64,000 nt of DNA from Rhynchopus sp. YZ270_cl-10. Lineage: Eukaryota. The notes beneath the pieces are model-generated. The model was not told where the DNA came from. It did not search any database and saw only the letters and a list, made by a program, of their open reading frames with translations. Shown here in pieces: positions 6,493 through 54,250 of the stretch. A program made the position numbers and the translations under genes. Numbering within the stretch: the first letter of the stretch is position 1; the number at the start of each line of letters is the position of its first letter. Location of the stretch: NCBI GenBank assembly GCA_964035575.1, contig OZ037839.1:868001-932000 (forward strand), given 5' to 3'.

Positions 6493-7027
6493 ACTTGGAG
6501 ACCCCCAAAAATATCTTTCAGGAGAGGTGGAATGAAGAGAAAAAAGAGGGGGTAAAAGAGAAAAAGAAGTTGAGAGAGAGAGAGAGAGTGAACTTTTTTT
6601 TTTTGTACAAAGAAACATCGGCAGCTTTTTTATTATTACTACCAAAAAAAAAAAAAACACACAAGGCGTGTGAAATGATTTAAACAATCGCTAGCTTGGC
6701 CACCCCTCCCTCAGCACACCCTCAACCCCCGCATCCTATGTGTCCACACAACACATGGCCACCTTTTATAGTGGCTGTATTCTGAGAATTGCCTATCATA
6801 ATTCATGCACACCACAACACAGCTATGCATTGCCATATTCGTACAAATTATCGACCGTAATGATGTTCGGACCTTTTTTCAGGATTTTTCTGGAAGTTGG
6901 ACCTTTTTTTTTTTTTTTTCGATAATTTTCGTACGAATACGGTACACAATATAGCTGTGCTGTGATGTGTGGTATGCTTTAGAATAAGGAAAATCATCAC
7001 AATACAGCCTACCATTACCCCCTTTTT

Positions 7028-8371
7028 TTACCCTTCTTTTTCTTCCCCTCTTTTTCGTTTTAGCGTACGCGGCTGGGCGCGATCCGTACCGTTTTGTCTC
7101 TTTGTGGTCACAGCCCCTCCCCCTCCTCCTCCTACTCCTCCTCCTCCCCCTCCTCCCCCTCCTCCCGCTTTCTTTTCTATTGATTCCTGCACCGTACGGT
7201 ATCTCCTCAGGAGTGCGGGGATGTTGTTAATACAATGCGCCATATGCCCAAAGGCCTCAAAATTCCCTCCTGTAGTGAGGAACGCCGTAGAGGAGGTCGT
7301 ACGGGAGAGCGCACGGAGCGCATTGACCGCTCGCGGCACGGCGTCGCGCCTGCCTGCGGTCTTCCCCCCTTCCTCCCTGCCATCGACGACCAGCGCCTGC
7401 GCTGTCTTCGCAAGAAACATTTTCCGAAGCGTGGTCCGCAGACGTTGCGACAGACGGTGATGTTTCCAGATAGGGTCGGCATGGGTTGCTGCAAGGTACA
7501 GCCCCGCGGCCGCTTCATTCCACAACGGAAAATGCACCAGACCTGCATTAAAAGGCGGCGGATCGACTGTCAACATCACCTCCACAATACGTATGGCTAC
7601 TGCCGCAATTTCTGCTAGCTTTGCTTCGCTCACCTTTTCAGACTTTCCCTCCAACCGCTCCAACACCTCGTCATATGATGCATCTCTCCCCTGCTCCGCC
7701 CCGAGAAGCGATCGAAGTGGTTCCTCCCGCAACGTGGTTGCAAACTCCCCTTCAAGCTCAGCAAGAAACGTTGCGCCTTTGGCTTCATTGGTCGACAAAT
7801 CTTCGCTGCGCATTTGGGTGATCAGCTTGCCTACCATCCGAGGTGATGAACCACTCTTTTCACATATATCCTTTGCCGTAATACCTAAACGAAGTTTAAA
7901 TGCCGTCAGCGCTACGCACGAAGACGCTACAACTTTGGAAGAAGCATCCCCACGCCAGCTGGAAGAGATGATAAAGACGTAGAGCTTGGTTTTGCGGGAG
8001 GTCAGCTCTTTGAGGTATTTGACGGCGGTGAGGTTCTGGGCCTCGTTCATGTGGAGGGAAAGAGTGAGGCGGCCGACTTCGTCGTAGATTTCGGTAAGGC
8101 GTTGTGCAAAGCGTTCTTTGCGGTCGTTGTCTTGCTTCGTATCTGTGGCAATGTGTGTCCATCCGCGCATTTGAGTGTTGTCCCAAGTGCCGTCATCGTT
8201 ATATTCCGCAAAAATATCCCGTTCAGGCCCCTCCACCCCAACAATAGCCGAGCTCTGCCCGATATAACCACACACAGTGCACGCCAGCTCGTTGACCCCA
8301 TCTGCCAGCCAGGTCAGCTCAAACACCCCATCGCACCCCGGCTGGAGACAACGTTGTGATACAGGGTTCAT
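7028..8371 (-). CDS. TFIIB/BRF-like transcription initiation factor (Zn ribbon + cyclin fold)
   Basis: C-x4-C...CTVCG zinc ribbon followed by cyclin-like KVVASSCVALTAFKLRLGITAKDIC; Gly-rich and basic C-terminus. Confidence 0.7.
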   Translation of the reverse strand: MNPVSQRCLQPGCDGVFELTWLADGVNELACTVCGYIGQSSAIVGVEGPERDIFAEYNDDGTWDNTQMRGWTHIATDTKQDNDRKERFAQRLTEIYDEVGRLTLSLHMNEAQNLTAVKYLKELTSRKTKLYVFIISSSWRGDASSKVVASSCVALTAFKLRLGITAKDICEKSGSSPRMVGKLITQMRSEDLSTNEAKGATFLAELEGEFATTLREEPLRSLLGAEQGRDASYDEVLERLEGKSEKVSEAKLAEIAAVAIRIVEVMLTVDPPPFNAGLVHFPLWNEAAAGLYLAATHADPIWKHHRLSQRLRTTLRKMFLAKTAQALVVDGREEGGKTAGRRDAVPRAVNALRALSRTTSSTAFLTTGGNFEAFGHMAHCINNIPALLRRYRTVQESIEKKAGGGGGGGGGGVGGGGGGAVTTKRQNGTDRAQPRTLKRKRGEEKEG

Positions 8372-9739: not shown

Positions 9740-9859
9740 TTCTGTGTGTCGCTCTGTTTTGTGGGGGTTGAGGGAGCAAGCATCTGCAACTACGATTTCT
9801 CCTTGAGTACCGTACGAGAGGAACACTGCTTCAAATCAAAAAACAAAAAAAAAACCAAT

Positions 9860-9982
9860 CTCTGCTTTGCGGGGTATGGAGCTTGCAATGGATGATATCT
9901 AAACCTATCACTGAGTATCGATTGGTGGACAAGTCTGGTGCCAGCACCCGCGGTAATTCCAGCACCAATAGCGTATATGTTA
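9860..9982 (+). pseudogene. 18S rRNA gene fragment (about 120 bp)
   Basis: GATTGGTGGACAAGTCTGGTGCCAGCACCCGCGGTAATTCCAGCACCAATAGCGTATA is the conserved SSU 515F/530-loop region; rest of the rDNA is absent; 5' limit approximate. Confidence 0.88.
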
Positions 9983-12318
9983 GAGGGTGGGCGTGTTTTC
10001 CTAGAATTTGACGGACGTAGCTCGTAGAACCCAACGAGGAATGAGAAAAAAGGATAATATTGTGGCGAAATTATAAAAGTAGCGCACCGTGCGCCTGCGG
10101 CGCAAGCTTACCGTAAATTGCATGACATAGGTACTGGGTACTCACCCAAAAAAGTGGACGGCATCTAAAAATGTCCGCCTGCGGCGCGGCAGCCCTTGAC
10201 CCAGTTTCCCCCTTGTCTTGTTCAGTCGGCAGGATCACTTGGCCCATCACCATACACTGATGTTGACCAAAAGCCAAGAACATGTCATTTCGTCAAATTG
10301 ACCCCCACCACAGCGCGGACGGATCCCAAAAACTCCACAAACTAGCTTCTCCAGGTCTTTCGCGCGCGAATCGCGCGAAGAACGTTTTCTGCCTCACCCC
10401 CCTAAGGTCAAAAAAACCGGTTCCTAAAAAAAACTCTGAAAAAAACAAAACAAAAAAAATATTATTGAGATGAACCTACCGGGAGTGAAAAATACGGAAG
10501 TAACAAAGTGGAATGGCATGAAGCATGCAAGCGGAATGTGAAGTGATGTGAAGTGAAGGAAAGAGAGTTGAAGTGAAGGACACGCAGAGAGCACAAGAGG
10601 AACTGTGCCCTTGATCCGACCCCAAAGAAGTGTCCAATGAAGGTGGGTGGTACAGTGGGGATGATTTCTTGCTCACTCAACAAAACACTACTCGACCCGC
10701 CCAAACACACAGAATAATCCTAACACCCCAATTCCCACTCCCGCTTTCTTCACTGCCCCTAAAAACCAACGTCACCTAGTCTGCTGCGTACAACGTTGCT
10801 ACACTTGTCCATTCCGTCGACTTTAGACAACATTTTGCAGTAGGAGAGAAAACTGTAACCAATCGTGGTGACTGCTTGCAGGCCGGTGAAGTCCACTTCC
10901 GACAATGATGTGCAGTTGTAGAGAAAACTGTTACCAATCGTGGTGACTGCTTGCAGGCCGGTGAGGTCCACTTCCGACAATGATGTGCAGTTGTAGAGAA
11001 AAGTGCCACCAATCGTGGTGACTGCTTGCAGGCCGGTGAAGTCAACTTTCGACAACGATGTGCAGTTGTAGAGAAAATTGTTACCAATCGTGGTGACTGC
11101 TTGCAGGCCGGTGAAGTCCACTTCCGACAATGATGTGCAGTTGTCGAGAAAACTGTTACCAATCGTGGTGACTGCTTGCAGGCCGGTGAAGTCCACTTCC
11201 GACAACGATGTGCAGTCGGAGAGAAACCTACCACCAATCGTGGTGACTGCTTGCAGGCCGGTGAAGTCCACTTCCGAAAATGATGTGCAGTTGTAGAGAA
11301 AATTGTTACCAATCGTGGTGACTGCTTGCAGGCCGGTGAAGTCCACTTTCGACAACGATGTGCAGTTGTAGAGAAAATTGTTACCAATCGTGGTGACTGC
11401 TTGCAGGCCGGTGAAGTCCACTTTCGACAACGATGTGCAGTTGTAGAGAAAATTGTTACCAATCGTGGTGACTGCTTGCAGGCCGGTGAAGTCCACTTCC
11501 GACAACGTTGTGCAGTTGTTGAGAAACTCGTCACCAATCGTGGTGACTGCTTGCAGGCCGGCGAAGTCCACTTTCGACAACGATGTGCAGGTGTTGAGAA
11601 AATTGTTACCAATCGTGGTGACTGCTTGCAGGCCGGTGAAGTCCACTTCCGACAACGTTGTGCAGTTGTTGAGAAACCCGCCACCAATCGTGGTGACTGC
11701 TTGCAGGCCGGCGAAGTCCACTTTCGACAACGTTCTGCAGCCGTGGAGAAACCCGCCACCAATCGTGGTGACGCAGGGTAATGCAGGCAGGTGCAGTGTG
11801 ATGCCACAGTTGTCATCCACATTGGGTACGCAACTGAAACCAATGCGCGTTACGTCACTACCTGAGAAGAAGTCTTCTGGAATCTCAGTCGCAACTTCTG
11901 ACTGAAGAAGCAAGCTGGCCACCTTCGGATCCTCCACCTGCTGCAACCTTTCTGCTGGTAAACGTTTTTTAAAAATAGGATGGAGCACCCCGGTCCGAAA
12001 AGGAATGCAGCCACCCCTGGCTTCAGGCTCGCGAACCCAGTATTGCAGTAACACTGGGTCTCACGGGCCAAAAACCGAACAAAGAAAAGGAAAATGTTTG
12101 GGTTCAGCGACAGCGCCAATGGGCTGACGCGAGGCTGAACCAACTTAAAATAAAATAAAAAATCTTGTATCAACTTGAAAAGGAAAAGCAATGAACAGCA
12201 ACAGAGCCATTTGGGCTTACGCGTCGCTATAGTAACTGAAAAACAATGTTTTAAAAACAAGAATGTCGTTGACCAAGATTGAAATACACGAAAAAGGTAA
12301 AATACTAAGAATTGCCTC

Positions 12319-14342
12319 ATATTCCATGGGCATCGTTTCTGATGTTGTAGTTTGTCTGCTGAGTGATCACGCGCCCCCCCTACTAGGGAGGTCTTAGGTT
12401 CATGCTTCGGCTAGCACGTAAAAGCTACCATGTCGCCGAAGTTAGCGGTCCTCGTATTCCATGAGGTCTTTCAGATGTTGTTGTTTGACTGCTGAGTGAT
12501 CATGCGCCCCCCCTACTAGGGAGGTCTTAGGTTCATGCTTCGGCTTGCACGAAAAAAGCTACCATGTCGCCGAAGTTAGCGGTCCTCGTATTCCATGAGG
12601 TCTTTCAGATGTTGTTGTTTGACTGCTGAGTGATCACGCGCCCCCCCTACTAGGGAGGTCTTAGGTTCAGGCTTCGGCTAGCACGTAAAAGCTACCATGT
12701 CGTCGAAGTTAGCGGTCCTCGTATTCCATGAGGTCTTTCAGATGTTGTTGTTTGACTGCTGAGTGATCACGCGCCCCCCCTACTAGGGAGGTCTTAGGTT
12801 CAGGCTTCGGCTAGCACGTAAAAGCTACCATGTCGTCGAAGTTAGCGGTCCTCGTATTCCATGAGGTCTTTCAGATGTTGTTGTTTGACTGCTGAGTGAT
12901 CACGCGCCCCCCCTACTAGGGAGGTCTTAGGTTCATGCTTCGGCTAGCACGTAAAAGCTACCATGTCGTCGAAGTTAGCGGTCCTCGTATTCCATGAGGT
13001 CTTTCAGATGTTGTTGTTTGACTGCTGAGTGATCACGCGCCCCCCCTACTAGGGAGGTCTTAGGTTCATGCTTCGGCTAGCACGTAAAAGCTACCATGTC
13101 GTCGAAGTTAGCGGTCCTCGTATTCCATGAGGTCTTTCAGATGTTGTTGTTTGACTGCTGAGTGATCACGCGCCCCCCCTACTAGGGAGGTCCTAGGTTC
13201 GGGCTTCGGCTTGCACGTAGAAGCTACCATGTCGCCGAAGTTAGCGGTCCTCGTATTCCATGAGGTCTTTCAAATGTTGTTGTTTGACTGCTGAGTGATC
13301 ACGCGCCCCCCCTACTAGGGAGGTCTTAGGTTCATGCTTCGGCTTGCACGTAAAGAACTACCATGTCGCCGAAGTTAGCGGTCCTCGTATTCCATGAGGT
13401 CTTTCAGATGTTGTTGTTTGTCTGCTGAGTGATCACGCGCCCCCCCTACTAGGGAGGTCTTAGGTTCATGCTTCGGCTAGCACGTAAAAGCTACCATGTC
13501 GTCGAAGTTAGCGGTCCTCGTATTCCATGAGGTCTTTCAGATGTTGTTGTTTGACTGCTGAGTGATCACGCGCCCCCCCTACTAGGGAGGTCTTAGGTTC
13601 ATGCTTCGGCTAGCACGTAAAAGCTACCATGTCGTCGAAGTTAGCGGTCCTCGTATTCCATGAGGTCTTTCAGATGTTGTTGTTTGACTGCTGAGTGATC
13701 ACGCGCCCCCCCTACTAGGGAGGTCTTAGGTTCATGCTTCGGCTAGCACGTAGAAGCTACCATGTCGCCGAAGTTAGCGGTCCTCGTATTCCATGAGGTC
13801 TTTCAGATGTTGTTGTTTGTCTGCTGAGTGATCACGCGCCCCCCCTACTAGGGAGGTCTTAGGTTCATGCTTCGGCTAGCACGTAAAAGCTACCATGTCG
13901 TCGAAGTTAGCGGTCCTCGTATTCCATGAGGCATTTCTGATGTAGTTTGTCTGCTGAGTGATCACGCGCCCCCCCTACTAGGGAGGTCTTAGGTTCATGC
14001 TTCGGCTTGCACGTAAAAGCTACCATGTCGCCGAAGTTAGCGGTCCTCGTATTCCATGAGGCATTTCTGATGATGTAGTTTGTCTGCTGAGTGATCACGC
14101 GCCCCCCCCACTAGGGAGGTCTTAGGTTCATGCTTCGGCTTGCACGTAAAAGCTACCATGTCGTCGAAGTTAGCGGTCCTCGTATTCCATGAGGTCTTTC
14201 AAATGTTGTTGTTTGACTGCTGAGTGATCACGCGCCCCCCCTACTAGGGAGGTCTTGGGTTCAGGCTTCGGCTAGCACGTAAAAAGCTACCATGTCGCGA
14301 AGTTAGCGGTCCTCGTATTCCATGAGGCACTTCAGATGTTGT
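12319..14342. repeat. About 15 tandem copies of a 133-bp unit
   Basis: GTTAGCGGTCCTCGTATTCCATGAGG recurs at 12441, 12575, 12708, 12841, 12974, 13107, 13240 ... about 14302; near-identical units with no unique spacers. Confidence 0.96.
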
Positions 14343-14361
14343 TCTTCTTTTTCTTCTTGTT

Positions 14362-14427
14362 CCGAGTCTTTGCCGCAGTCCACTGCGTTGCCCGGGGTCA
14401 CCTCGTGGAGGTGCTCGGTAAAACCCC
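14362..14427 (-). ncRNA. HDV-like self-cleaving ribozyme (predicted)
   Basis: GGGGUU(P1) UUA CCGAGC(P2) ACC(P3) UCCACGA(L3) GGU(P3') GACCCC(P1') GG(P1.1) GCAA CGCAG-UGGA-CUGCG(P4) GCAAA(J4/2 with catalytic C) GACUCGG(P2'). Confidence 0.85.
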
Positions 14428-14882
14428 CTGCTGCAACCTTTCTGCTGTGATGTTTGTCTCACCCAATGCATGAAGAGCTGATATGGCTTCGTATTTCATC
14501 GTTTTCGTCAACACGACTGTGTCTCCAGCACTCAGTTCTGTGATGTCCTCTCCTTCCTCCTTCCCTCCGAAGCCCATGCGGAAGCTGTCTTCGCACAACT
14601 CTGCTGCAGTCGCCACCTTCTGCCGCATCGTCTCCGTTGTGTCCTTCTCACCCACCTCCATCACGAAGTCGTTCCCCAAGCCCTGGATAGTCAGTTCCAT
14701 TTTATGTGTCTCTTGATGTATCTCTGTGGGTGGGTTGTTGGGTAAGGAAGAGCTTTTAACCCGCAAACCCCAAGATTTTTTGTCATCTGAATGATGGTCA
14801 CTAGGGGAACGGTAGGGGCTAGGTCACCCATCTATAATTTATAGAATCGCAATTTATAGATTTGTAATTTATAGATTAATTA

Positions 14883-15282
14883 CAGGGGGGTAGCCAAATA
14901 AGAGGGGCGCCGCTCTTATTCGGCGTGCCTAATCGCAAAGTATTGGGTTTTCCGAGCTTTCGGGGTCAACTTATGGGGTCCTGTACAAAACCTTAAGGGG
15001 GGTCCAAAAAAAATTTTACCACCAATTTTTGCCCACAAAAAAGTTATTTCTCAGCGCAAAGTGACTCCATCACAGCACGCACAGACTCCCGAGAATCGGA
15101 AAAAAAAATTGGCAAAAATCGGTCGAAAATTTTTTCAGGCCCCCAACCAGTACCTCCCTTAAGACTTTGTACAGGAGGGGGGTGCCCCTCTTATTGGCCA
15201 GAGTTCGCCAGATCCCAGGGTGCCGCTCTTATTACCCCTGCCGCTCTTATTCGGCATGCCGCTCTTATTAGGCCCCCCCCTG
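14883..15282. mobile_element. Tc1/mariner-type MITE
   Basis: TA|CAGGGGGG..AATAAGAG ... CTCTTATTAGGCCCCCCCCTG|TA. Confidence 0.7.
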
Positions 15283-16313
15283 TAATTAATTTTTGGCCTT
15301 TTTTGGCCATTCTATAAATTAGAAATCTATTAAATAGAGGTTGGACTGTATTGAGATGTACCTATGCGTGCAAACTATCGACCGTAATAACCCTATTTTG
15401 GGACAAGTGTAACATGAGGTTATTTTGGGCAAAATAGCCCAAAAAGTGATCGCAAATACGATTCTCCACCCCGCAGGGGATCTGGCGAGTAGTTCCGAGG
15501 GGGTTTGGACACTTCTGTGCTTATCTGAGAACTTTTTTTTGAATTTTTAAGGTGAAAAAGCACCCTAAAAAAGAGGCAAATTCGGGCATTTTAAGCGGTT
15601 CCGTCCCTCATGAATACGTCTGGGACCCTCCCAGGACCCCTAAAAGCTGTAAAAACCATACATTTCCACCCCGGGACCCCAGAAGATGTGGACTGAAGTG
15701 TTTTTCGGGTGTTTAGAAGGAGCTTTGCCTGATTGGATAAATTTCTTGGCAAGTGTTAAATTTTGGTCCCCAAGCGTTACGCAATTTTGGGGTCTTTTTT
15801 CACAAAAAATCGATTTTTTTTTGGACAAGAAATGCTCTGTGAAGGTCGTCAGGTGGTTTATTGGGATATATGGGTGATCCCCAGGGCGATTTGCGGCCAG
15901 GCACGCCCATTTTAGTGGGTTTCTTCACCGAAATTTCAAAAAAATGGGTTTTGGACAGCAAAACGCCCTTGGTGGAACCCCCTACCCCCCCCCTGAGGTC
16001 CCCCCCCCTCCCCCCCCAAAAACGCGGACATTGTCCGCGTTTTTTGTTTTGATGCCACCCCTGTAGGTTGAACATTTTACTAATGCGGTAAGCCTCTAGT
16101 ACTTAGTCACCTTACTAAGAGCATACAAGAAGAACATTGGCCGTTAAAAGGAGAACACTTCCAAAAAAAGTATGTCTTGAGCGAAAACAAATTGAGAGAA
16201 AACACTAAAATCAAAATATCACAAAAATTGAGAGAAAAAAAAAACCCCACATTGTAATTTTGCACAACCTAACAAAATGTGGTCTTTCTGTTTTCGCCAT
16301 ATTTTCCCCTTTT

Positions 16314-17699: not shown

Positions 17700-19160
17700 T
17701 TACAAATCCAGCAACTGCGATACAGGCGCCTTCCCATCCTTCACATCAAGCAGTACTTGAAGGTCTTTCTTCACTTCTTGGTATTGATTTTTAAATCCAT
17801 CGAACTCCGCGGTTCGCATGCTGAGCGAGTCTTGCAGGTTGCATATTAGTCTTTTATCCTTTTTCGCTTCTTCCCTCATGCTGCGCAACTGATGCGACTT
17901 GCCACCTTGCTCCTGTTCATAATCGATGTTGAGACCGACGGAACGCCGCCAGCAATCTTCTAAATTCAGGATATACTCATCCACCTCAAGCAACGACGCG
18001 CAGGCACCTAACTGCGGCATTGTGTCCGAGTCTGAGAGCATCTTCTGCCTGACATACTGCCCCGAATGATTTGTTCTGTAGATCAGCCGACGGTGTTCAT
18101 GCTTGACGACCTGCTGGGGCAACGCTTTGTGCATCGTACTCTGCTGCTCCGGCAGCGCCTGGTGAAGAAGCGCTGGACTAAACGCAGGACCTGACAGCCA
18201 ATCAATCTGATACCTCGTAAACAGACTGGCAAGAAGCTTTGAGACTGACAACGCAACGTGCTCGTCGTCGCTATTAAAGGAATCGCTTCCGTGGTTTTTA
18301 TTGATCAACTGAACCACCCCAACTGGCTCCGAAGATGCATTGAAAATTATTGGAAAACACAACAGACTTCTTCCTTGAGGCCGTTTTGACACCGGTGTTT
18401 TAGGAGTTGGATTACTAGAAAGGGTGGGTATCGTGGGCATTGATGGAACATCCTTTTTGTCATTAGTAATAAGCTGGTTCACTGCGATATTCGATGTCAA
18501 GACCGACCCCGCGACACCAGACGCCGCAGCCAACCGAATTGGCCCCTGCTGCTTCGCCCCCTTCTCTCCTTTGCCCCCAACCACCGCTACACTCTGTAAT
18601 TCATCCTTTACTCTGCCTGTATATAATAGTACATTGCCCTTCTCCGCCTTCGCAGCTTGAACCGCGCTTTCCAAAATAAAATACACTGAAGAAAGCAGTC
18701 TGCCCTGAACATTATCTTCCTTCGCTTTGGATGGGGGTGCGGTTATGGCTAGCCCTGGGGATACGGTATTTGAAGTGTTTTGGACCGGCATGGGGGTAGC
18801 TGTGGTGATGACTTTGGATTTGGAGAAGATGTCGGTGCATTCACGGATTGCACGCTCGAGAGCGAGGAAGCGGACGGTGAGGCTGTCAAGGCTTCGACCC
18901 ACCTTTTCAAGCTTGGCTTCAGGAGAATCCGTATCAGCTTGAACCGTCGCAGTAAGCGCCCTCGCAGAATCCAAAGCAATCTTCGTGCTTGCCGCGTGCT
19001 TCTTCAACCAATCGATCGATCTCTTCTTCGCATCGTCAGCCCGCTTCCGTTCAGACTTATCTATCGACTCCTTCCGGTTCACATTTCCCATTCCATTTGA
19101 ACTAGCCACAGAAGAGCGTTGAACACATGAAGGGCCATTCGAAGGAGGTCGGGGGAACAT
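17700..19160 (-). CDS. GAF-domain protein with coiled coils
   Basis: GVAGSV...RSLLCFPII..PVGVVQLINK...FNSDDE (PDE-type GAF motifs); heptad-rich ends. Confidence 0.85.
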   Translation of the reverse strand: MFPRPPSNGPSCVQRSSVASSNGMGNVNRKESIDKSERKRADDAKKRSIDWLKKHAASTKIALDSARALTATVQADTDSPEAKLEKVGRSLDSLTVRFLALERAIRECTDIFSKSKVITTATPMPVQNTSNTVSPGLAITAPPSKAKEDNVQGRLLSSVYFILESAVQAAKAEKGNVLLYTGRVKDELQSVAVVGGKGEKGAKQQGPIRLAAASGVAGSVLTSNIAVNQLITNDKKDVPSMPTIPTLSSNPTPKTPVSKRPQGRSLLCFPIIFNASSEPVGVVQLINKNHGSDSFNSDDEHVALSVSKLLASLFTRYQIDWLSGPAFSPALLHQALPEQQSTMHKALPQQVVKHEHRRLIYRTNHSGQYVRQKMLSDSDTMPQLGACASLLEVDEYILNLEDCWRRSVGLNIDYEQEQGGKSHQLRSMREEAKKDKRLICNLQDSLSMRTAEFDGFKNQYQEVKKDLQVLLDVKDGKAPVSQLLDL

Positions 19161-19292
19161 TTGATATTTGATAATGGGTAAACTGAATTGGTTATTTGGA
19201 TTTGGGGTTTGTGTGAGTATTTCTAGAGATGAGATCAAAAACGGTTTGATATTCCCGTAGTTGAGCGATTAGGTGAAAAAAAGCTTAAATTA

Positions 19293-43684: not shown

Positions 43685-45618
43685 ATCGCAGCCAACGTGA
43701 AGGGCATTCTCAACCCCGGCAGCCCGACATGGGCGGTAACCCACACACGCACACACCTCGACCTGTCGGTGAAATGTGGCTCTACTCCAACCCGCCCCGT
43801 ATTAGAAAAATGGAAAAAATGATGGGAGTAGGGTACGGTGTTCAATTTCCTTTTAGCATTGCATGTAATCATATAAAATAAAATGGATGCTTTGTCACGG
43901 CGTACGAAAGTGCTTCGAGGAGTTTTTTTTGAGAAAATTCCAAAAAAAAAAAAAAAAAAACGCTTGAATTTTTAGGGAAAAGCGCTTTTTTCCCTTAAGG
44001 GGTTTGTTAAGGGGGTTTAAGTCCACACTACAAGTGACCCAAACCAAATTTATCGAGTCGCCGATTTCCCGCTGTGGTCATTTTTCTGATAAAAATTACA
44101 AACGCAGTGCCATTTTATGGGAAGCTTTTTTAGAAATGTTGCGTACCGTGTCTTCGCCAGGAACTTTTGGGTGCCATGACCGCTGTTTACTGATAAGAAG
44201 GCTGACATCCACTGCGGCTTGTGGACGGCCACCTGCACCGGCCTCGGAAGAGTACAGTGTACAGGCCTCCTGCACAACAGCCCGGTAGGAAGTGAGAAGG
44301 AGCGAATGTCGCTGATTCGGAGGAACTCTGACTGTGCTTGGTTAACATTCGTCTCTCTGCCGGAGGCTACGATTGCAGGGGGGGTTTTTTTGGTACCATG
44401 CAACGGAAGTTTTTCAAAACTCAAAAATCCTGGCGGCGGGGCCGATAGTCGTCTTTTCCTTTTTTGATAGGGGGACGGGGCGGGGTGTGCATGCAAAGTT
44501 AAATGGAATGACATGAAGCATGCAATCGGAATGTGAAGTGTGGTGAGGTGAAGAACACGCAGAGAGCACAAGAGGAACTGTGCCCTTGATCCGACCCCAA
44601 AGAAGTGTCCAATGAAGGTGGGTGGTACAGTGGGGATGATTTCTTGCTCACTCAACAAAACACTACTCGACCCGCCCAAACACACAGAATAATCCTAACA
44701 CCCCAATTCCCACTCCCGCTTTCTTTACTGCCTCTAAAAACCAACGTCACCTAGTCTGCTGCGTACAACGTTGCTACACTTGTCCATTCCGTCGACTTTC
44801 GACAACGTTGTGCAGTTGGTGAGAAAATAATCACCAATCGTGGTGACTGCTTGCAGGCCGGTGAAGTCCACTTCCGACAACATTTTGCAGTGGGAGAGAA
44901 ACCCTTCACCAATCGTGGTGACTGATTGCAGGCCGGTGAAGTCCAATTTCGACAACATTTCGCAGTCGGAGAGAAACCCTTCACCAATCGTGGTGACTGC
45001 TTGCAGGCCGGTGAAGTCCACTTTCGACAACGATGTGCACCTGTAGAGAAACCAGTCACCAATCGTGGTGACTGCTTGCAGGCCGGTGAAGTCCACTTTC
45101 GACAACGATGTGCACCTGTAGAGAAACCAGTCACCAATCGTGGTGACTGCTTGCAGGCCGGTGAAGTCCACTTCTGACAACGTTGTGCACTCGGAGAGAA
45201 ACTTGTCACCAATCGTGGTGACTGCTTGCAGGCCGGTGAAATCCACTTCCGACAACGTTTCGCAGTAGGAGAGAAAATCGTCACCAATCGTGGTGACGCA
45301 GGGTAATGCAGGCAGGTGCAGTGTGACGCCACAGTTGTCATCCACATTGGGTACGCAACTGAAACCAATGCGCGTTACGTCACTACCTGAGAAGAAGTCT
45401 TTTGGAATCTCAGTCGCAACTTCTGCCTGAAGAAGCAAGCTGGCCACCTTCGGATCCTCCACCTGCTGCAACCTTTCTGCTGTGATGTTTGTCTCACCCA
45501 ATGCATGAAGAGCTGATATGGCTTCGTACTTCATCGTTTTCGTCAACTGGTGGGGGCCCGTTTTCGATGCATGCACCCCTATCCGAGATAGGTGATACAA
45601 TACATCGTGGAGGTGATG

Positions 45619-48600
45619 TTACATAAGTCCATCACCGCCCCTGCTGTGCCCATCCTTCTGCTTCGTCTGCTTCTTCTTGAAGAAGCCTCCCAGCGTCGTC
45701 TGACGCCCCTTCGAGGTGTCGTGGTGGCGGCGGCAGCAGTGCTCCAGCGTACTCTTCTCTTGCACACAGTTCCCGCACCTCGAGAGTCTATGCTTAGTGC
45801 ATGCTTCGTGTCGGATCGGTAACCCGTCGTCGTTGGAGTGGTGCGCAAAGCAGCAATGCATCAGGTCTGCCTGGGCGTTCTTCGAGCAGGCATCACACTT
45901 CGTCTTCCGGTGCAGCACACATATCGCAAACTGGAAGATCGGAACCGCTCCTTCAGGTGCCTTCACGGGTGCGTCCCCTGGACGCACGTGCTCATGGTGC
46001 CGGTAGCGAGCATGCGCAGATGTCTCCTGTTCAGCCCGCTGGATGAATGGTAGTGCCCTCCTGCCCCTAACTTCTGTGGAGGGGTACGCCGTCTCAGCAG
46101 AATACTCCCCCATCCATGTACCTCTCGCTCTATCGCCACCACGGAGCTCCGCCTCAGACATGCCTTCGGAGCTGCGTTGCAGACGGTACGCCACACCAGC
46201 ATCGTATAGCGCACGCAATGCCTTCAACGTTTCTTCTCCGCCGGCAAAGATAGGACGGCGGTCGATGCCTGTGATGGCGTTCGCCCCAAACGAAGCGAGA
46301 ACATGCGTTACCTTCACCTTCCCCGGATGGAGAGAGCTCTCCGAAAAGGTTCTGAGTGAAGCCAACATATGCCCAAAGGTGGTCGTCTTCGCCATTTCTC
46401 TGTGGGCCAGCGCTACTGGCACCACGTCGTCATCATCGTCGTCTTCCTCACTCCCGTCGTCTTCCCCCCCATTGTTGACTTCTTCCCCAGTCCCATCCCT
46501 CGGCTGCTTCAGCTTCGGCGCTATTCTGCCGGTCTTGTCCCCAGGTCGGATGTCCATCCCTGTGGCAACCTCGAAGTCGATGAGCAGCTCCATGTGGGAG
46601 ACTTCACGTCCAGCTTCGTCGCTCCATTGTAAACCACCCAGCCAGGAGGCAAACGCCAGCAGCAGCGCACGTCCATACGGCCACCTCCTTTTCAGGGGGG
46701 TGTAGTCCACCAAACTGTTCGCGTGTTGCGTCGTCGTGTCCAACTCCGGCGCCCACGTCCACGGGTATCGGTCTTCTTGCAGTCGCGGGTTCGTCGCTTC
46801 CGGTCTGCTCCACTTGGAGCGTGCGATGAGGATGCGCACCATCATCTTCTGCAGGTCTGCAACACGGGCGCATTCCAAAGGTGTGTCCGGTGTGCACATG
46901 CCGCAGATAGCGAGACAGTTTGGCCAGGTCGTTCTGTCAATGTCCAACAGCAAGGGGTACTCCGCACGAATGCTACTCCATGCTTCACATTCCCACCACA
47001 AGTGTTTGTGATTTTCGTCCACCCCCGCTTCGCAGTGCACGCAGATGGCCGAGTCCCGTATGCGCGCTCTCGCAAGTCGCACCCCCGTTATCGCACCGTC
47101 AGCTACAATGTGTCGTAGCGTCCCCGCCTCGTAATCCGTCAAAGTTTTGCTTCGGGTGAGAGCAAGGGTTTTCTCCTTATCCACCCCCGCTTCAATACCC
47201 TTCAGGTTAGCTCTGCCTTTGCCATTGGCCTTCGCAGTCGTCTTCGTACGGGAGAGTCGAATGAAGAACATCCGTTCTCGCACAACGTGGCCCAGTCTAC
47301 CCAAGCTTACTGTCTTCACATCAACGATGCTCCCATCGTGCGTTTTCACTTTTGTCGTGTCTATCCATGACCACGCAAGGCGGCTGAGGGCTCGCGCAAT
47401 CAACCCGATGGGTCCTCCAGTCTTCGCCTGCTTCGCTTTCGCACGTGACCTGCACTTTTCGACCAGCAAACAGATCTCATCCGATTTGCGTATCATCGCC
47501 GCCCACGTCATGATCCTTCTGTAGTCGAATGCCACCGAGGGGTCGAGCAGATGGCCTTTCTCGAAGACATTCAGCATGACCGGTACGCTTCTTCGGTTCA
47601 TCTTGTTCACGCCGTGGACCCCTTTCTCCACTGCAGTTGCAAGACTGTTCACGTATTTCCCAGGTGGGTCCTGCACCGTGATACCGTACACAGATTTCGA
47701 CATCACTGCAGCCTGCATGATGCCTGCTTTCTCACCTTGAGTCAGCGGGAGGCATCCCACCTTACCTGCTAGCGGTCCGCATGCGTCGATGGTGTCTTCC
47801 AGCTTCGTCGGGAGCGTGGGCGTCCCAGCCTGTCGGGCCTGCACCGTCGCCCCCAGGCACTCCGACTTCTCGACGCGAGTAAGATCCGCGCCGTTCATCT
47901 GCACAGTTTCCTCTTCATCAGGACGGTTGCTCTGCCACGTGCTCTTCCCCGCGTGGACGCGTTGTCCCGTCAAGTCTGCAAAGTGTCCGGTGAAGGCGAC
48001 ACCCGCTCGCAGCTGGTCGAGGGTCTTCGTCAGGAGGTTGGTGTCGTCAGCATACGCCAGCCCCTGCGTGCCCGTTTCCTTCTCCACCCCGTTCATCCAC
48101 ACCGCCACCAGCGCATTCAGGAAGATTACGCTCAGTGGGCATCCTTGGAGGATACCATTCGTCGCAAACCATTCTTTGCCAAGACCTGCCGGAAGTTTGA
48201 AACGCCTCCCCAGCTTCTTGTATATACCCCGGATGGGGCGCATCATGTTGTCGGGAAGACCCAACCGTTCGACGAGCTGGAACATGATCTCTTGGGGAAC
48301 ACGGTCAAAGCACTTCTGATAGTCGAAGGAGGCTAGATAGATAGGTGTGTCGTCTATCAGAGCCTCCTCCATCTTCGCACAGAGAAACCACAGCAGGTCT
48401 TCGGTTCCGTGTTTGTTCCGGAAGCCGTGTTGCCGCTCGTGAATCCAGGATTCCTGCCACGTCGCCACTTTGCGGAGTCGAGTCGCCGCCCATAACCTGT
48501 ACATCACACTGGTGATGGTAATGGGTCGCTGCTTCAGGGGCTCCTCGCCTTCTCCTTTGGGGATGAGCACCACCAACGCCCTCGCAATCACCCTGGGCCA

Positions 48601-50625
48601 GTTCCCAGTATCCTCGATCAGGTTCAGGCAGCGCGCGAGTTCCTCCAGCAGTGTCAAAGGCAGTTCCTTCAGCTCCTCCACCCTCCACCCATCGAGGCCT
48701 GCCGCCTTTTTCCGCTTCATCTTGCCGATGGTCGTACGGAGGTCGTCGGCGGTCAGGGGTTCGCATACACAAGGGGTCCCTTCAGGAATGTGTTCCTTGA
48801 ACCTATCAAAGAACGTCGTCCACGCAGGTTCTTCGGAATCGTCGTACATCCGGAACACCCCACCCCAAGCACGGTCATCCATGAGCAGTTCATCCATCTC
48901 CTGGAGGTTAGCTGTAACCGTGCCGTCCTCCCGTTTCAGGAACGTGGTGTGTGACGACGTAGCCTTCCGCAGGAACGAGAACACCTTCGCTGGGTTCTCC
49001 TTCATGTGTTCTTTCATTGTGCGGCGCCATTCCTTGATGCGGGCCCGACGCCGTTGCTCCAGCAGGACAAAACCCCTCTTCTTCAAGCAGCCAAGGAGCC
49101 CACACAACGCCTCTATCCCAGGAAGGTCGAGGTCCCAGGTGTCACTCTTCAGTAGATGCTTCTTCTTGCGGATTTTCGCCCACAGCTGCCGTTCGTTCAA
49201 CGATTCTGCAGATGGCTGACCGAAGCGCTTCCTCCGATCACCAATGAGCTGCTCCATCTGACGACATGTCTTCTGCAGTTGAGCCGTCTCCAGGTTCACA
49301 GCATCCGGCGTGTCGCAGTCCATGCGGGCCGTCCGATGTCGGAGAACGTCGGGTTGCACCTCCCCTCTCCCCCTGTGGCGTTGTTGCTTCGGGTCTGAGT
49401 CTGCAGCACCTCTCTTCAGCAGGTAGTCCTCCGCAATCTTGCAGAAGCGTGCCCAGCGATCTTCAACCGACATCTTCGTCAGGTCGGCTTCAGGGGCAGC
49501 GTTCTCCTGCATCACCTTCGCTGCAAGCTCCTTCTCCTTCTTCGCCGGCCATTTCGTCCAGTCGTCGCCGATCAAAGAAAGGGGAGGGCGTGCCTGCGGT
49601 GCCTTCTGCTCGTATCGCGTCAGGTCTAACGTCAACACCACCGGTCTGTGTACCGGGAGGCAGCTCTCTTTCCAGACCACCACTTTGGAGATCGCAGGGG
49701 CAGCCACGTGGTTCGCCAGCACCAAGTCGATACGTCTGCCAGACGATGTGGAGGTATAGCATGTGTTCTCTGCTGCCTTACCCAACTGCTGTGCGTAGGT
49801 ATCTGCCGCATCAACCCATTTGCCGGAGGAGATGGCCGCTCGAATGGCTAGACTTTCGTTAGCCTCTACGTTGAAGTCTCCGGCAATGAACACCGGTATG
49901 TCCCCAAGGCTGGCTGCTTCTTCAAAGATGCCTGTCAGGAGTTGCTCCGTGCGGTCGCTGTCAGCACACACACCATAAAACGAGAACACAGAGATGTTAC
50001 GTCCCCCGCTCCCATATGCCACCTGCGCATGCGTAAAGCGGCATTCGTTCCACGCTTGTTGGGCACATTGTGGCGGTACTGCTCTGGTCGGTATGTCAGC
50101 GCACGTCATGATCGCAACTCCACCATTCTGCGTGCGCGTGCGCAGAGGGTCTGATCCCTGGCTTCGTCTGCAAGGGGCACCAAAGAGAAGCTGCTTGGCA
50201 CCATACCCCTTCACGTCGTTTGCTGCCCCCTTCATCTCTTCTTCTGTGAGGCGCACCTCCTGCAGAGCACAAACGTCCACATCCCACTCCCCCACCGCAG
50301 GGTGTGCCCTCAGAGACGTCACGTTTGCCGTGCCAAGCGACATGGTCGACGGACCCGGATGCTCCTCCACGTCTCCACATGTCAGCAGTGACCCCCTGCC
50401 CAAAAACGCCCCTCGTCGCCTCCCTCGACGCACCCTGTGTCCGACCCCTCGCCCCACCCCCCTTCGCGTTCTACCCTTACCCCTTGTCCCCGACAGCATA
50501 CAGCCCGCAGAGCGCAAACGATGCTGACCCCTTGTTGGGGAGACAGTTTTCACAAAAACGTCTCGTTCTCCAACTACGCACGAAGAAGCCAATCCTGTGC
50601 CGTACCCTTCCACCGCACCACACCG
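45619..50625 (-). CDS. LINE ORF2: 2A-like peptide, APE endonuclease, reverse transcriptase, zinc finger, Cys/His repeats, PIP box
   Basis: APE motifs ANVTSL, LQE, GDFN, RIDLV, HRPV; RT motifs KAAGLDG, RPITI, QHGF, FDYQKCFD, LQGCPLS, YADD; CxxC..HLWWEC. Confidence 0.95.
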   Translation of the reverse strand, partial: RCGAVEGYGTGLASSCVVGERDVFVKTVSPTRGQHRLRSAGCMLSGTRGKGRTRRGVGRGVGHRVRRGRRRGAFLGRGSLLTCGDVEEHPGPSTMSLGTANVTSLRAHPAVGEWDVDVCALQEVRLTEEEMKGAANDVKGYGAKQLLFGAPCRRSQGSDPLRTRTQNGGVAIMTCADIPTRAVPPQCAQQAWNECRFTHAQVAYGSGGRNISVFSFYGVCADSDRTEQLLTGIFEEAASLGDIPVFIAGDFNVEANESLAIRAAISSGKWVDAADTYAQQLGKAAENTCYTSTSSGRRIDLVLANHVAAPAISKVVVWKESCLPVHRPVVLTLDLTRYEQKAPQARPPLSLIGDDWTKWPAKKEKELAAKVMQENAAPEADLTKMSVEDRWARFCKIAEDYLLKRGAADSDPKQQRHRGRGEVQPDVLRHRTARMDCDTPDAVNLETAQLQKTCRQMEQLIGDRRKRFGQPSAESLNERQLWAKIRKKKHLLKSDTWDLDLPGIEALCGLLGCLKKRGFVLLEQRRRARIKEWRRTMKEHMKENPAKVFSFLRKATSSHTTFLKREDGTVTANLQEMDELLMDDRAWGGVFRMYDDSEEPAWTTFFDRFKEHIPEGTPCVCEPLTADDLRTTIGKMKRKKAAGLDGWRVEELKELPLTLLEELARCLNLIEDTGNWPRVIARALVVLIPKGEGEEPLKQRPITITSVMYRLWAATRLRKVATWQESWIHERQHGFRNKHGTEDLLWFLCAKMEEALIDDTPIYLASFDYQKCFDRVPQEIMFQLVERLGLPDNMMRPIRGIYKKLGRRFKLPAGLGKEWFATNGILQGCPLSVIFLNALVAVWMNGVEKETGTQGLAYADDTNLLTKTLDQLRAGVAFTGHFADLTGQRVHAGKSTWQSNRPDEEETVQMNGADLTRVEKSECLGATVQARQAGTPTLPTKLEDTIDACGPLAGKVGCLPLTQGEKAGIMQAAVMSKSVYGITVQDPPGKYVNSLATAVEKGVHGVNKMNRRSVPVMLNVFEKGHLLDPSVAFDYRRIMTWAAMIRKSDEICLLVEKCRSRAKAKQAKTGGPIGLIARALSRLAWSWIDTTKVKTHDGSIVDVKTVSLGRLGHVVRERMFFIRLSRTKTTAKANGKGRANLKGIEAGVDKEKTLALTRSKTLTDYEAGTLRHIVADGAITGVRLARARIRDSAICVHCEAGVDENHKHLWWECEAWSSIRAEYPLLLDIDRTTWPNCLAICGMCTPDTPLECARVADLQKMMVRILIARSKWSRPEATNPRLQEDRYPWTWAPELDTTTQHANSLVDYTPLKRRWPYGRALLLAFASWLGGLQWSDEAGREVSHMELLIDFEVATGMDIRPGDKTGRIAPKLKQPRDGTGEEVNNGGEDDGSEEDDDDDDVVPVALAHREMAKTTTFGHMLASLRTFSESSLHPGKVKVTHVLASFGANAITGIDRRPIFAGGEETLKALRALYDAGVAYRLQRSSEGMSEAELRGGDRARGTWMGEYSAETAYPSTEVRGRRALPFIQRAEQETSAHARYRHHEHVRPGDAPVKAPEGAVPIFQFAICVLHRKTKCDACSKNAQADLMHCCFAHHSNDDGLPIRHEACTKHRLSRCGNCVQEKSTLEHCCRRHHDTSKGRQTTLGGFFKKKQTKQKDGHSRGGDGLM
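50350..50400 (-). other. 2A-like (StopGo) peptide GRGSLLTCGDVEEHPGP
   Basis: 16/17 identical to T2A GRGSLLTCGDVEENPGP; lies immediately before the APE domain. Confidence 0.85.
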
Positions 50626-53600
50626 TCACCGCCCCACATCGCGCAGGGTGTTGCGGCCTACCAACCTGTTGTCTAGTCCCTGGACGGGACGAAACGCGAT
50701 CTCGATGACGTCCCCCGCTACCTTCACGACAGTCACCGGGATGGCTGCGCCGTTGCCTCCCTCCTCGCAGTACTCCATGGAGTCGCCAGCCTCCAGCACT
50801 GCGTTCCCGTACGACTCCTCGTTCTTCTCGTTCCCCTCCGCCTGCTCTTTTGCGGGGACTTCCGTCCGCATCCTGCGCGGCGGACTCAGCAGCGCCACCG
50901 TCTCACCGGACTCACTGCGGTCTTCCCGCTTGCCCGCCAGGGTCACGGCAGGTGGCGCCACCGGCACTCTGGGAGCTGGCGAGGTCTCCGCGTCCTCCTC
51001 GACAGCCGCACAGTCTGGCGATGTCTGCACCGGCAGTGCCATGTCGGCGTCGTCCATCCGTGCCTCGGCGTCTGGTGTCGTGGGTGCGGGGGTCCCTGCG
51101 CCGGCGTTCTCCCCTTGCTCCTGCTCACGTTGTGCCTGCACTGCTGCAGCACGTCTCTCCTTCTTTGCCGCCGCTTCTTCCTGTGCTGCCCGTAGTGCCT
51201 CCCGTCGTTTCTCAGCGGCCACAATGTTCCTGCGTTTCTTCTTCTTCTTCGGGGACGCCACCACAACCTCCACATCACCGGCGCCAGCAACGTCCGCAGT
51301 CGGCGATGTGTCCCTGGGCGGTGCTGACCGCGACCGGTTCCGTGCTTCGGCGACTTCTACGACTACCCCCGGCTTTCCACGGATGGTGTCAGCCCTCCTC
51401 CTCCTGCGGCGCGGGCTCAGCTCCTCAACCTCACTGGACCCATTTCCCGCACGTATCCGCTTACCTGCCATCGTTGCGGGCTCCGGTGACATCACGTCCT
51501 CGGCATTCCCGTCTGGGAGTGTGTCCAACAATTCATCCGCCATCTGCATCTCGGGTGTTGTGGGCGCTGCAGTGGGCACTGCGACAGTCGGGGCCGTAGT
51601 AGCAGCAGCCTCCCCCTCGCGCTGCCTGGCGTTCTCAGCAGCAACTGCAGCAGCGGCGGCGGCGGCTTCCTCCTCCTGCTGCCAGAGGATTGCAGCAGCA
51701 GCGTCGGCTTCCTCACGCTGCTTGAGGACTGCAGCAGCGGCGGCCTTCTCCTCCTCCTCACGCTGCCTCAGGGCTGCAGCAGCAGCGGCCTTCACCTCCT
51801 CCTCGCGCTGCTTGAGGGCTGCAGCAGCGGCGGCCTTCGCCTCCTCCTCACGCTGCCTCAGGGCTGCAGCAGCGGCGGCCTTCACCTCTTCCTCACGCTG
51901 CTTGAGGACTGCAGCAGCAGCGGCCTTCTCCTCCTCCTCACGCTGCCTCAGGGCTGCAGCGGCGGCGGCCTTCGCCTCCTCCTCCTCCTGCCTCAGGGCT
52001 GCAGCAGCAGCAGCGGCGTCCTCTCTCGCAGCAGCCGTGGCCTCCTTCGGCATGGAACAGAGCTTGCCCACTTGCTCCAGCATGGCCGCCATCCACACCT
52101 GCTGCTCCTTCCGTTGCTCCACCCGTTCTTCCCGCAACTGGGCCGTCAGCGACGCCACCGTCTCCTGCAGCAGGGTCTGGAGGCGCTCGCCCACCAGGCG
52201 GTCCAACCTCTCCTCCATCCGGCGCTCCAACTCCGCCCACTTCTCGCCTGCGTCCTCAGGTGATGGGGCGGGCGACGTCATTGGGGGTTGACCCTTCGGC
52301 GTCCGTTGCTTCGTTGTTGTTGTTGTTGTTGGTGGAGGTGTCCTTGATGTGGTAGTGGGTGGCTTCGCTGCAGCTGGCGCTGTTGCTGCTTGGCGTGCGT
52401 GCGCAGCCCAGGACACCCAACCGTAGTCGGGCCCAGTGCCACGGTTGTGCTGCGCTGTCGCCGCCGGCGCCGTCCGGGCACCAAATGTCGGACCAGACGC
52501 ATGTGCGGTATGTACCTTGGCCTTCTGTTTCGCCCCCGGACCCGGAGCCGTTGCCCTACCCCCGCCCTCCTTATGCCCATCCTTGCGGATCAGCAGCCCC
52601 TTCCCGTTCCCCTCCATGTCCATGGCCCACGTCGGCGGATCCAGCTTCGCTCCCACCACCCAACGCCATCCCTCCAGCCTCCGCAGCGGCGTCACCGTCC
52701 ACCCTGCGCCTGCCAGCGACTCCATCACCGCTTCACCGGACGTACCCGACGGGAAACCGGACACCACGTATCGACCTTCGGGCGCCTTTCCCTCCTGCAT
52801 GAGTGCCGCATTTGCACGCTCCTGATCCTCCTTCTTCACCCGTATCCCCAGGGACTCGTACCTCGCCGCCACTCCCCATCCCCCCATCCGGGTCGCCAGC
52901 CCCTGGGCCTCTTCTAGCCCCACCCCGTCCACCAACCACACGACAGGCAGATGCTCCGACTGCTCGCGTCTCATCCGGAAGAAGACACCCCCCTTCCCAC
53001 TCTGCTTCAGGCAGCGCTCTGCTACGTCCTCCCTTACGTCGGCCACCGAGGAGATCAGCTTACCCTCCTGCCACAATGGTGGGCGGTTGAGGTTGCACCC
53101 CACCTCCGCACGCATCTTCTTCCCCGCTGACACCAGGTCCTGCGCTTGTCCTGCTGTCGGCCTCATCGTCACAAACACCGTCACCAGTTGGACGGCCGCC
53201 GACGCCTTCTTCCCCCCGTTTCCTCTCCCCGGCCTCAGCCTCCCCACCACGTACACGGCCGTGCTCGCCGCCCCGTTCACCTTCCCCCCATTCCCCTGCT
53301 TACCCATGGGGCACTGCATCTTCTCCCCACCAGACTTCGGGAAGGACCCGAAACCCACCCACGTCACGCCCGGCGTGCGCGCGATCTTCCCCTCTGCCTC
53401 TACCTCTCTACCCTGCGGCACAAGACAGACCCCCTCCGACTTATCCACCACCTCCCCCCACGGCACAAGCGTCGATCCCACCCACTCCGATTGCAGCAAT
53501 GTCAGCGCTGCCGTCGTCTTCTTTTTCCCTCCCCCCTGGGTGAAGCCCCCCTCCGTCCCCGCCTTCGCATCGTTTCGCGGTTGCGGCACGGTGTACGGCT

Positions 53601-54129
53601 TCTCCGTCACCTCCAACGCACCCCCCACCATCGCCTTGCGGGCCCGGTCTTCGGCGGCTTCTTCCCCCGTGCTCGTGGGGAGGACGCACAGGTAGTGGCA
53701 TGCGTCCACGTACGCCACCGTCACCGCTGCACCGCTGCCCTTCTCCTTCGGGTGCACCTTCAGCACACGCACCTCCCCATCCTTCACCGAGAAGGCATAC
53801 ACCTCCCGCATCAGCACCTCCGCCAACGCCTTCAGGGTCAGGTGGTCCCCCCAGGACCCCTGCTTCGCCATCGCCGAGCAGTACCTCCGGTAGGCGGACG
53901 GTCCTCCGTCAACGTGCTCACCCCAATTCTCCGCTTCCCGTTCCAACACCCCCACCGCCATCTCCCTCAGCCCCCCGTGCGCCGTGGCGTCTCCGTGCAC
54001 AGCCATCGAGACCGCCTTAAATTGGCAGTCTCCGTTCCCCCCTGCGTCCTTTACCCGCATGTCGAAGCCCCTCAGGTATTTCTGCAGCACCCCCTTTTCC
54101 CCCCCTTGGCCACCTGCCCCTCCGCACAT
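50626..54129 (-). CDS. LINE ORF1: N-terminal OTU-like cysteine protease, RRM-like region, Ala/Glu coiled-coil repeats
   Basis: GNGDCQFKAVS..WGDHLTLKALA..CHY; RYVVSGFPSGTS; (AAAAALRQREEE)n; first in-element ATG at 54129. Confidence 0.85.
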   Translation of the reverse strand: MCGGAGGQGGEKGVLQKYLRGFDMRVKDAGGNGDCQFKAVSMAVHGDATAHGGLREMAVGVLEREAENWGEHVDGGPSAYRRYCSAMAKQGSWGDHLTLKALAEVLMREVYAFSVKDGEVRVLKVHPKEKGSGAAVTVAYVDACHYLCVLPTSTGEEAAEDRARKAMVGGALEVTEKPYTVPQPRNDAKAGTEGGFTQGGGKKKTTAALTLLQSEWVGSTLVPWGEVVDKSEGVCLVPQGREVEAEGKIARTPGVTWVGFGSFPKSGGEKMQCPMGKQGNGGKVNGAASTAVYVVGRLRPGRGNGGKKASAAVQLVTVFVTMRPTAGQAQDLVSAGKKMRAEVGCNLNRPPLWQEGKLISSVADVREDVAERCLKQSGKGGVFFRMRREQSEHLPVVWLVDGVGLEEAQGLATRMGGWGVAARYESLGIRVKKEDQERANAALMQEGKAPEGRYVVSGFPSGTSGEAVMESLAGAGWTVTPLRRLEGWRWVVGAKLDPPTWAMDMEGNGKGLLIRKDGHKEGGGRATAPGPGAKQKAKVHTAHASGPTFGARTAPAATAQHNRGTGPDYGWVSWAAHARQAATAPAAAKPPTTTSRTPPPTTTTTTKQRTPKGQPPMTSPAPSPEDAGEKWAELERRMEERLDRLVGERLQTLLQETVASLTAQLREERVEQRKEQQVWMAAMLEQVGKLCSMPKEATAAAREDAAAAAAALRQEEEEAKAAAAAALRQREEEEKAAAAAVLKQREEEVKAAAAAALRQREEEAKAAAAAALKQREEEVKAAAAAALRQREEEEKAAAAAVLKQREEADAAAAILWQQEEEAAAAAAAVAAENARQREGEAAATTAPTVAVPTAAPTTPEMQMADELLDTLPDGNAEDVMSPEPATMAGKRIRAGNGSSEVEELSPRRRRRRADTIRGKPGVVVEVAEARNRSRSAPPRDTSPTADVAGAGDVEVVVASPKKKKKRRNIVAAEKRREALRAAQEEAAAKKERRAAAVQAQREQEQGENAGAGTPAPTTPDAEARMDDADMALPVQTSPDCAAVEEDAETSPAPRVPVAPPAVTLAGKREDRSESGETVALLSPPRRMRTEVPAKEQAEGNEKNEESYGNAVLEAGDSMEYCEEGGNGAAIPVTVVKVAGDVIEIAFRPVQGLDNRLVGRNTLRDVGR

Positions 54130-54166
54130 CGCGTCGAGGCTGCCCCCCGCCGCCGTCCTTCTTCCC

Positions 54167-54250
54167 CGCGCTTTAGCAGACGCCTCCCCCCATAGAGGAG
54201 GGGGGCGTCTCCCGAGGGTACCCCGTGGAGGCGCGTCGTCTCTCACCCTC
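54167..54250 (-). ncRNA. HDV-like ribozyme at the LINE 5' end (predicted)
   Basis: GAGGGU(P1)..CGC(P2) GCC(P3) UCCACGG(L3) GGU ACCCUC(P1') GG G AGACGCC..GGCGUCU(P4) GCUAAA GCG(P2'); P2 is short. Confidence 0.75.

Follow-up and report, generated by a model that had tools for sequence, protein, structure and literature searches.

The closest described counterparts of the locus reported here are the trypanosomatid pairs L1Tc/NARTc and ingi/RIME, in which an HDV-like ribozyme (Pr77/L1TcRz) starts at nucleotide +1 of autonomous and non-autonomous elements alike; for L1Tc/NARTc, one head common to different bodies and a proposed release from polycistronic transcripts are described as well (PMC3185411, PMC4035085). 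R2 elements and R2 SIDEs carry a 5' HDV-like ribozyme with a P1 of 6-7 bp, insert site-specifically and include non-autonomous derivatives, and the trypanosome hot spot RHS is a large coding family with a fixed site in the 5' coding region that receives a LINE and a SINE and with truncated pseudogenes (PMC3774820, PMC7563717). The present locus, a ribozyme-headed insert in a gene for a ubiquitin-like, leucine-rich-repeat protein (Ubl-LRR), resembles these systems in the features named, release being a prediction here. R2 targets 28S rDNA and has a restriction-like endonuclease; different from R2, the target here is coding DNA, the target-site duplication (TSD) is 20 nt long, and the LINE found in the window (the whole 64,000-nt stretch of DNA analysed) has an APE endonuclease.

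Compared with L1TcRz, the ribozyme starting at 14427 has a P1 of 6 bp that begins with G, and two P1.1 pairs instead of one. Different from NARTc, the insert is 2.5 kb long, consists mostly of a tandem array and has no poly(A), and different from L1Tc/ingi, the window LINE has a separate ORF1 bearing an OTU domain. Ubl-LRR is a protein family unrelated to RHS, and it has two sites 65 nt apart with different elements at each. A further likeness is to the Rfam family HDV-F-prausnitzii (RF02682), to which the ribozyme aligns end to end with the same P3-L3-P1.1 core and J4/2 layout, whereas one P1 position is gapped and the context of RF02682 is bacterial. The ribozyme is predicted to work like L1TcRz in L1Tc/NARTc and like the R2 ribozyme (PMC3185411, PMC4035085, PMC6765202).

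The interrupted gene encodes a ubiquitin-like domain followed by BspA-type leucine-rich repeats and belongs to a family of at least 299 clusters. Its frame enters the insert and stops at a TGA nine codons in, and when bridged across the insert it is open down to the stop. Since this frame is already broken by the TGA, truncation of the host mRNA by the ribozyme, as claimed in the initial annotation, would be a side effect at most. That annotation had the ribozyme co-oriented with the host gene, and both indeed lie on the minus strand, which carries 10 of the 11 ORFs of at least 400 aa in the window, a layout that suggests a unidirectional gene cluster. In Diplonema papillatum, genes are reported to be likely co-transcribed in large groups (PMC10161547).

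The site without the insert is found in three paralogues within the window. From the window alone, the boundary G next to the TSD could belong to either side. In contigs of runs X1, X2 and X3 (three of four runs, one study), the ribozyme is joined to other flanks exactly behind 14427, and the element therefore starts at G14427, 5' of which the cut is predicted. Thus, the claim that the predicted cleavage site coincides with the TSD boundary is borne out both by the exact 20-nt repeat and by these flanks. The annotated features are collected in the table.

Features of the interrupted Ubl-LRR gene, its insert and the window LINE (window coordinates)
Feature	Coordinates	Strand	Basis
3' part of host gene, BspA-type leucine-rich repeats, frame open	10759..11957	-	Pfam LRR_5, E 3.8e-45
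TSD, downstream copy, 20 nt	11938..11957	-	exact repeat
Whole non-coding insert, 2,470 nt, inferred non-autonomous retroposon	11958..14427	-	20-nt TSD, empty sites
3' tail, ~360 nt, U-rich, two terminal hairpins (12076-12019, 12017-11977)	11958..12314	-	folding
Tandem array, 15.2 copies of a 133-nt unit, mean pairwise identity 95%	12315..14343	-	TRF, unit alignment
A-rich linker after ribozyme	14344..14361	-	sequence
HDV-like ribozyme fold	14362..14427	-	sequence, Rfam RF02682, pair table, shuffle control
TSD, upstream copy, 20 nt	14428..14447	-	exact repeat of 11938-11957
5' part of interrupted Ubl-LRR gene, 91 codons	14428..14700	-	frame analysis
Full-length LINE, 8.7 kb, inside Ubl-LRR paralogue	45548..54250	-	Pfam, junctions
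Second HDV-like fold, exact 5' end of LINE, 84 nt	54167..54250	-	descriptor match, pair table

In the 66 nt at the 5' end of the insert, every pair of a nested double pseudoknot was assigned in a pair table, with P1, P1.1, P2, P3 and P4 in the right order. P1 comprises 6 bp (14427-14422 with 14399-14394; four G-C, one U-A and one U-G), with the G1-C pair at the predicted cut, and is followed by a J1/2 of UUA. P2 is formed by five Watson-Crick pairs (14418-14414 with 14366-14362) and by C14413-G14368 across a bulged A, P3 by 3 bp (ACC/GGU) closing the loop L3 UCCACGA, P1.1 by two C-G pairs (G14393, G14392), and P4 by 5 bp with the loop UGGA. The L3 core is as in HDV-like ribozymes, and J4/2 reads GCAAA, with C14372 as the predicted catalytic C followed by A. 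The junction GGGCAAC at 14393-14387 is one that we take to be the same as in genomic HDV. A P1 of 6 bp was considered as a novelty and rejected, since two reports give 6-7 bp as the range for HDV-like ribozymes (PMC4908430, PMC3774820). As modelled, the segment 14427-14362 corresponds to the structural definition of an HDV-like ribozyme. All double-pseudoknot elements listed in the initial annotation, including L3, the P1.1 GG and J4/2, were thus recovered in the pair table and in the full-length Rfam alignment, and its word "textbook" is apt for the helices, all of which were assigned, and less so for the 6-bp P1 and for a competing hairpin in the nested fold (see below).

The HDV-like profile search named there as a check returned a match to RF02682 at 14360-14427 that spans model positions 1-74 of 74 with 37.7 bits (E 9.4e-5 with 2.7 kb searched, E 2.2e-3 for the whole window). 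This score lies below the gathering score of the family (44 bits), so that no HDV match appears when the whole window is compared with Rfam at the gathering threshold, and membership of RF02682 by score was rejected. A custom HDV descriptor matched twice in the window, at 14427 and at 54250, and in 1,500 shuffled windows it gave 16 matches of any length and one compact match, a control that is optimistic because the descriptor was written after both window matches were known. A version allowing a P2 bulge on one strand only missed the LINE ribozyme, and the relaxed version was used. Among the run contigs, the ribozyme head differs by 0-3 bases, and no variant letters inside the ribozyme are listed for runs X1-X4; run X4 has no coverage over 14390-14427 and run X6 none over the ribozyme, which is not taken as absence of the ribozyme. 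An exact 27-nt ribozyme pattern had no match in the metagenome contig collection.

A second HDV-like fold forms the head of the window LINE, which lies between TSD copies of 18 nt (54268-54251 and 45547-45530) and encodes an ORF1 with an OTU domain (PF02338) and an ORF2 with an APE endonuclease (PF03372) and a reverse transcriptase (RT; PF00078). This head has a P1 of 6 bp, a P2 of 5 bp with one bulge, L3 UCCACGG and J4/2 GCUAA; it was missed by Rfam at E<=1 over the whole window. Its core aligns to the insert ribozyme better than each of 2,986 random window pieces (2,986/2,986). Between the two heads, both bases are exchanged in two of the six P1 pairs and a single base in one more P1 pair and in one P3 pair; P1.1 is the same in both heads, and P2 and P4 keep their pairing in spite of different sequences. 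With two sequences to compare, these compensatory changes provide modest but real evidence for selection on the HDV-like fold. As a side observation, the first 69 codons of the LINE's host gene run in frame through the LINE ribozyme into ORF1, giving a chimeric frame of 1,308 codons. An 11-nt copy of the insert P3-L3 lies in the LINE 3' UTR (45618-45608, minus strand) without a matching P3 3' strand and is probably there by chance.

The fold might have been inherited from a LINE ancestor and now be weak or dead, the head serving mainly as an internal promoter or a protein-binding hallmark, as Pr77 also does, or this copy might be silenced by its flank. Such a reading would fit the Rfam score under the cut-off and the minimum-energy nested fold, computed by a program blind to pseudoknots, in which a competing 6-bp hairpin closes L3 (z -0.78). 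It would also fit the host flank, where nine bases upstream of 14427 are complementary (8/9) to P4-J4/2 in this copy and C14372 is paired with the flank at a probability of 0.23-0.60 in a pseudoknot-blind model; strong modulation of cleavage by upstream sequence has been described for L1TcRz and for HDV (PMC3185411, PMC4615214). We consider a weak or dead fold distinctly improbable, because all helices are intact, the catalytic C is present, the head varies so little among the run contigs, and compensatory changes preserve the fold in the related head of the LINE. The preferred reading is a working ribozyme, with a host flank that may, from the pairing model, dampen or slow the predicted cleavage of the 14427 copy. 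Since cleavage by an HDV-like ribozyme takes place solely in front of its first nucleotide, it would free only the element's 5' end, and the 3' end would have to be defined by other means; of the initial claim that the ribozyme cuts itself out of read-through transcripts, 5' release therefore stands as a prediction, while excision from the transcript is overstated. The site-specific insertion and the second ribozyme, heading the LINE at 54250, go unmentioned in that annotation.

Behind the ribozyme, the insert is non-coding, as had been annotated: no RT or other known protein domain was found in it, its long frames occur only at the host junctions, and it has no poly(A) at the 3' end. For the final 128 nt of the tail, the folding energy is -54.1 kcal/mol (z -4.83), a stability that none of 200 shuffles reached. 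Other copies continue from the common head into a body of a second kind at about 14345 (loose ends, in all four runs X1-X4). On X1 contigs, depth over the head is about 2,000-7,500 against 144 on a unique-flank contig, which is not a copy number and suggests many copies. With its TSD, its lack of coding capacity and its dispersed copies with a fixed end, the insert has these features of a non-autonomous non-LTR retroposon. A classical SINE with a Pol III head (tRNA, 7SL or 5S) was rejected, as ARAGORN found no tRNA in the insert and Rfam gave only the HDV model and two chance-level matches. An origin as an internal-deletion derivative (SIDE) of the window LINE was likewise rejected, the 5' likeness being limited to a 30-nt core of 77% identity.

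In run X1, depth over the array is about ten times that over the head, which again is not a copy number; arrays therefore seem general to the element family. Head-to-tail units of retrozyme-like size, together with this depth and seeming generality, could be taken as signs of a rolling-circle concatemer in which every unit is a small self-processing RNA and contains a ribozyme that escaped recognition. We regard this as extremely improbable: the 133-nt units have no Rfam match at E<=10, ribozymes included, two units fold no better than shuffles (z -0.06 and +0.53), and in 7 of 15 units one pair of the longest hairpin is broken by an A, the base in question being absent from one unit. Moreover, one and the same short hairpin is found at both ends of the array, a pattern expected from slippage or unequal crossing-over, and tandem amplification is the likeliest origin of the array. 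Hammerhead, twister, twister-sister, pistol, hatchet, HDV and tRNA were each rejected as identities of the unit by Rfam, ARAGORN and inspection for their motifs.

Where a host frame enters the ribozyme, it closes with an invariant peptide of 9 residues, and insertion sites can therefore be read from truncated paralogues. Searching the family for members of 55-175 aa led to 38 clusters, and expansion of all 20 multi-member clusters yielded 69 proteins. The resulting tally covers the Ubl-LRR family and those of its gene calls that have a suitable length, and the sequence that follows the head is known for the 14427 copy alone. Eight of the 69 proteins (the window copy included), on six contigs, end in the ribozyme read-through peptide at the codon boundary 91|92, and no element 8-mers in another frame or position were found among 189 family proteins. 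A further flank from the run contigs fits the same codon position with 15.1 bits, a score reached by 1 of 127,936 non-family window 10-mers; one flank in run X3 was unreadable. The same front end at the same codon in eight family copies suggests that the insert is likely a jumping element aimed at one spot. At the same codon-91 boundary, a different element, recognised by a "PDGG" read-through, is found in 19 of the 69 proteins, three of them starting slightly further in (P0280, P0287, P0293, P0296, P0310, P0312 and P0316-P0322 are among those with this read-through).

We asked what else could have put one head at one codon in eight genes. Recombination upstream of the insertion site has been described for RHS pseudogenes (PMC7563717), and in a family as large as Ubl-LRR a single old insertion might have been spread by gene conversion or recombination. 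Two of the eight carriers (P0278 and P0337) are closely related, and a single event may account for both. Over the 12 residues that precede the junction, seven of the eight carriers agree with another paralogue of their own subfamily at 12/12 positions and the eighth at 10/12, which favours separate insertions over one spread event. Furthermore, the seven carriers compared are only 53-79% identical, the TSD of the window copy is perfect and belongs to that copy's subfamily, and another element occupies the same site in 19 proteins. A spread event thus appears very improbable, and separate insertions at a fixed site are the preferred reading.

The window LINE lies at a second fixed site, after codon 69 and 65 nt upstream of the first. 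In six other truncated paralogues, the frame passes into this LINE at the same codon (in one at the LINE 5' end and in five further in, all confirmed by tblastn), and in none of the six does it do so at codon 91; two very short LINE-like tails (P0298 and P0306) were left out of this count. In P0305, P0306, P0308, P0332 and P0343, the protein sequence gives way at codon 69 to a different short foreign peptide, which points to one more element at this site. The window LINE could itself mobilise the insert, as it has the same type of 5' fold, a TSD of similar length (18 versus 20 nt) and a similar terminal hairpin motif, and belongs to a multi-copy family with 34 members in the collection searched. 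Against this stand the different codons used in the six paralogues and the weakness of the 3' match: the terminal hairpin motif has 19 matches in 27 positions, equalled by 81 of 2,980 random window pieces, nine of 5,000 shuffles were as good in a window chosen afterwards, and BLAST of the insert tail against the LINE found no match. We therefore think it unlikely that this LINE is the mobiliser. The driver is rather likely to be a relative (sister) of the window LINE, because the two use different sites. The "PDGG" element may be the true partner LINE, or it may be another passenger; its peptide has no tblastn match in the window.

Among the matches listed for the LINE RT, the closest named relatives are from Diplonema papillatum (50% identity), which makes a diplonemid-like euglenozoan the likely host, and no trypanosomatid L1Tc/ingi protein occurs among the named matches of the 120 listed. 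Against structures, L1 and R2 score alike (about 57 bits). The LINE group seems distinct from L1Tc/ingi. RT searches of metagenome and viral contig collections gave no related locus. Six RT loci from genome contigs had no Rfam match, no convincing ribozyme core and no clear element 5' end, and these RT-related loci are probably eukaryotic contaminants of bins.

Building on the observed fold, boundary, 20-nt TSD, common head at one codon in eight paralogues and related fold at the LINE head, we propose the following steps. The insert would be transcribed passively, along with the unidirectional cluster of host genes, and the ribozyme would cut 5' of G14427, giving a uniform transcript 5' end whatever the flank. 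An APE-RT LINE protein could then bind the structured 3' tail in trans and insert the element through target-primed reverse transcription at two nicks spaced by 20 nt, its endonuclease presumably preferring the coding sequence around codons 85-91 of the Ubl-LRR family, and damage to the host gene would be a by-product. Together, we hold with good confidence that the HDV-like fold is the exact 5' end of a likely non-autonomous retroposon, which is predicted to release its own 5' end, to depend on a LINE protein in trans and to target one fixed site in Ubl-LRR genes.

The known specific targets of APE-type endonucleases are mostly rRNA, snRNA and repeats. In a broader reading, to which we give about even chances, the Ubl-LRR family is a landing pad for several retroelement families in a diplonemid-like protist, evolved independently of RHS. 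There, APE machinery would hit coding DNA of 53-79% protein identity at two positions exact to the nucleotide, 65 nt from each other, and the elements would be set free from polycistronic RNA by their ribozyme heads. If true, this would mean strict APE targeting of a degenerate coding sequence. With two fixed sites, different elements and many natural target variants, the family offers a direct read-out of recognition by an APE-type LINE endonuclease, and the sites allow a test of whether hot-spot gene families recur in polycistronic genomes.

The role of the ribozyme is already known from L1Tc/NARTc and R2, and taken alone it is one more member of a well-known kind; what is new is the host lineage, the array that makes up the body, and a coding gene family being targeted with nucleotide precision. 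With this locus, the range of retroelements with a ribozyme head comes to include a probable diplonemid and a LINE group seemingly distinct from L1Tc/ingi. In the open literature, we found no prior report of an HDV-like ribozyme in diplonemids or of such gene-family targeting, and the word "ribozyme" is absent from the main text and seven supplements of the D. papillatum genome paper. At 66 nt, the ribozyme is cheap to assay.

Three further observations concern other parts of the window. Upstream of the host gene, at 14827-15344, lies a large imperfect palindrome with nested inverted repeats and 18-nt tandem units, which is MITE- or foldback-like. An isolated 116-nt fragment of eukaryotic SSU rRNA (9853-9968, plus strand, 78.4 bits) follows an A-rich run and sits just upstream of another Ubl-LRR paralogue. 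A 512-aa ORF at 17700-19238 (minus strand) has no Pfam match, and its language-model look-alikes are GAF-domain proteins (score 0.95).
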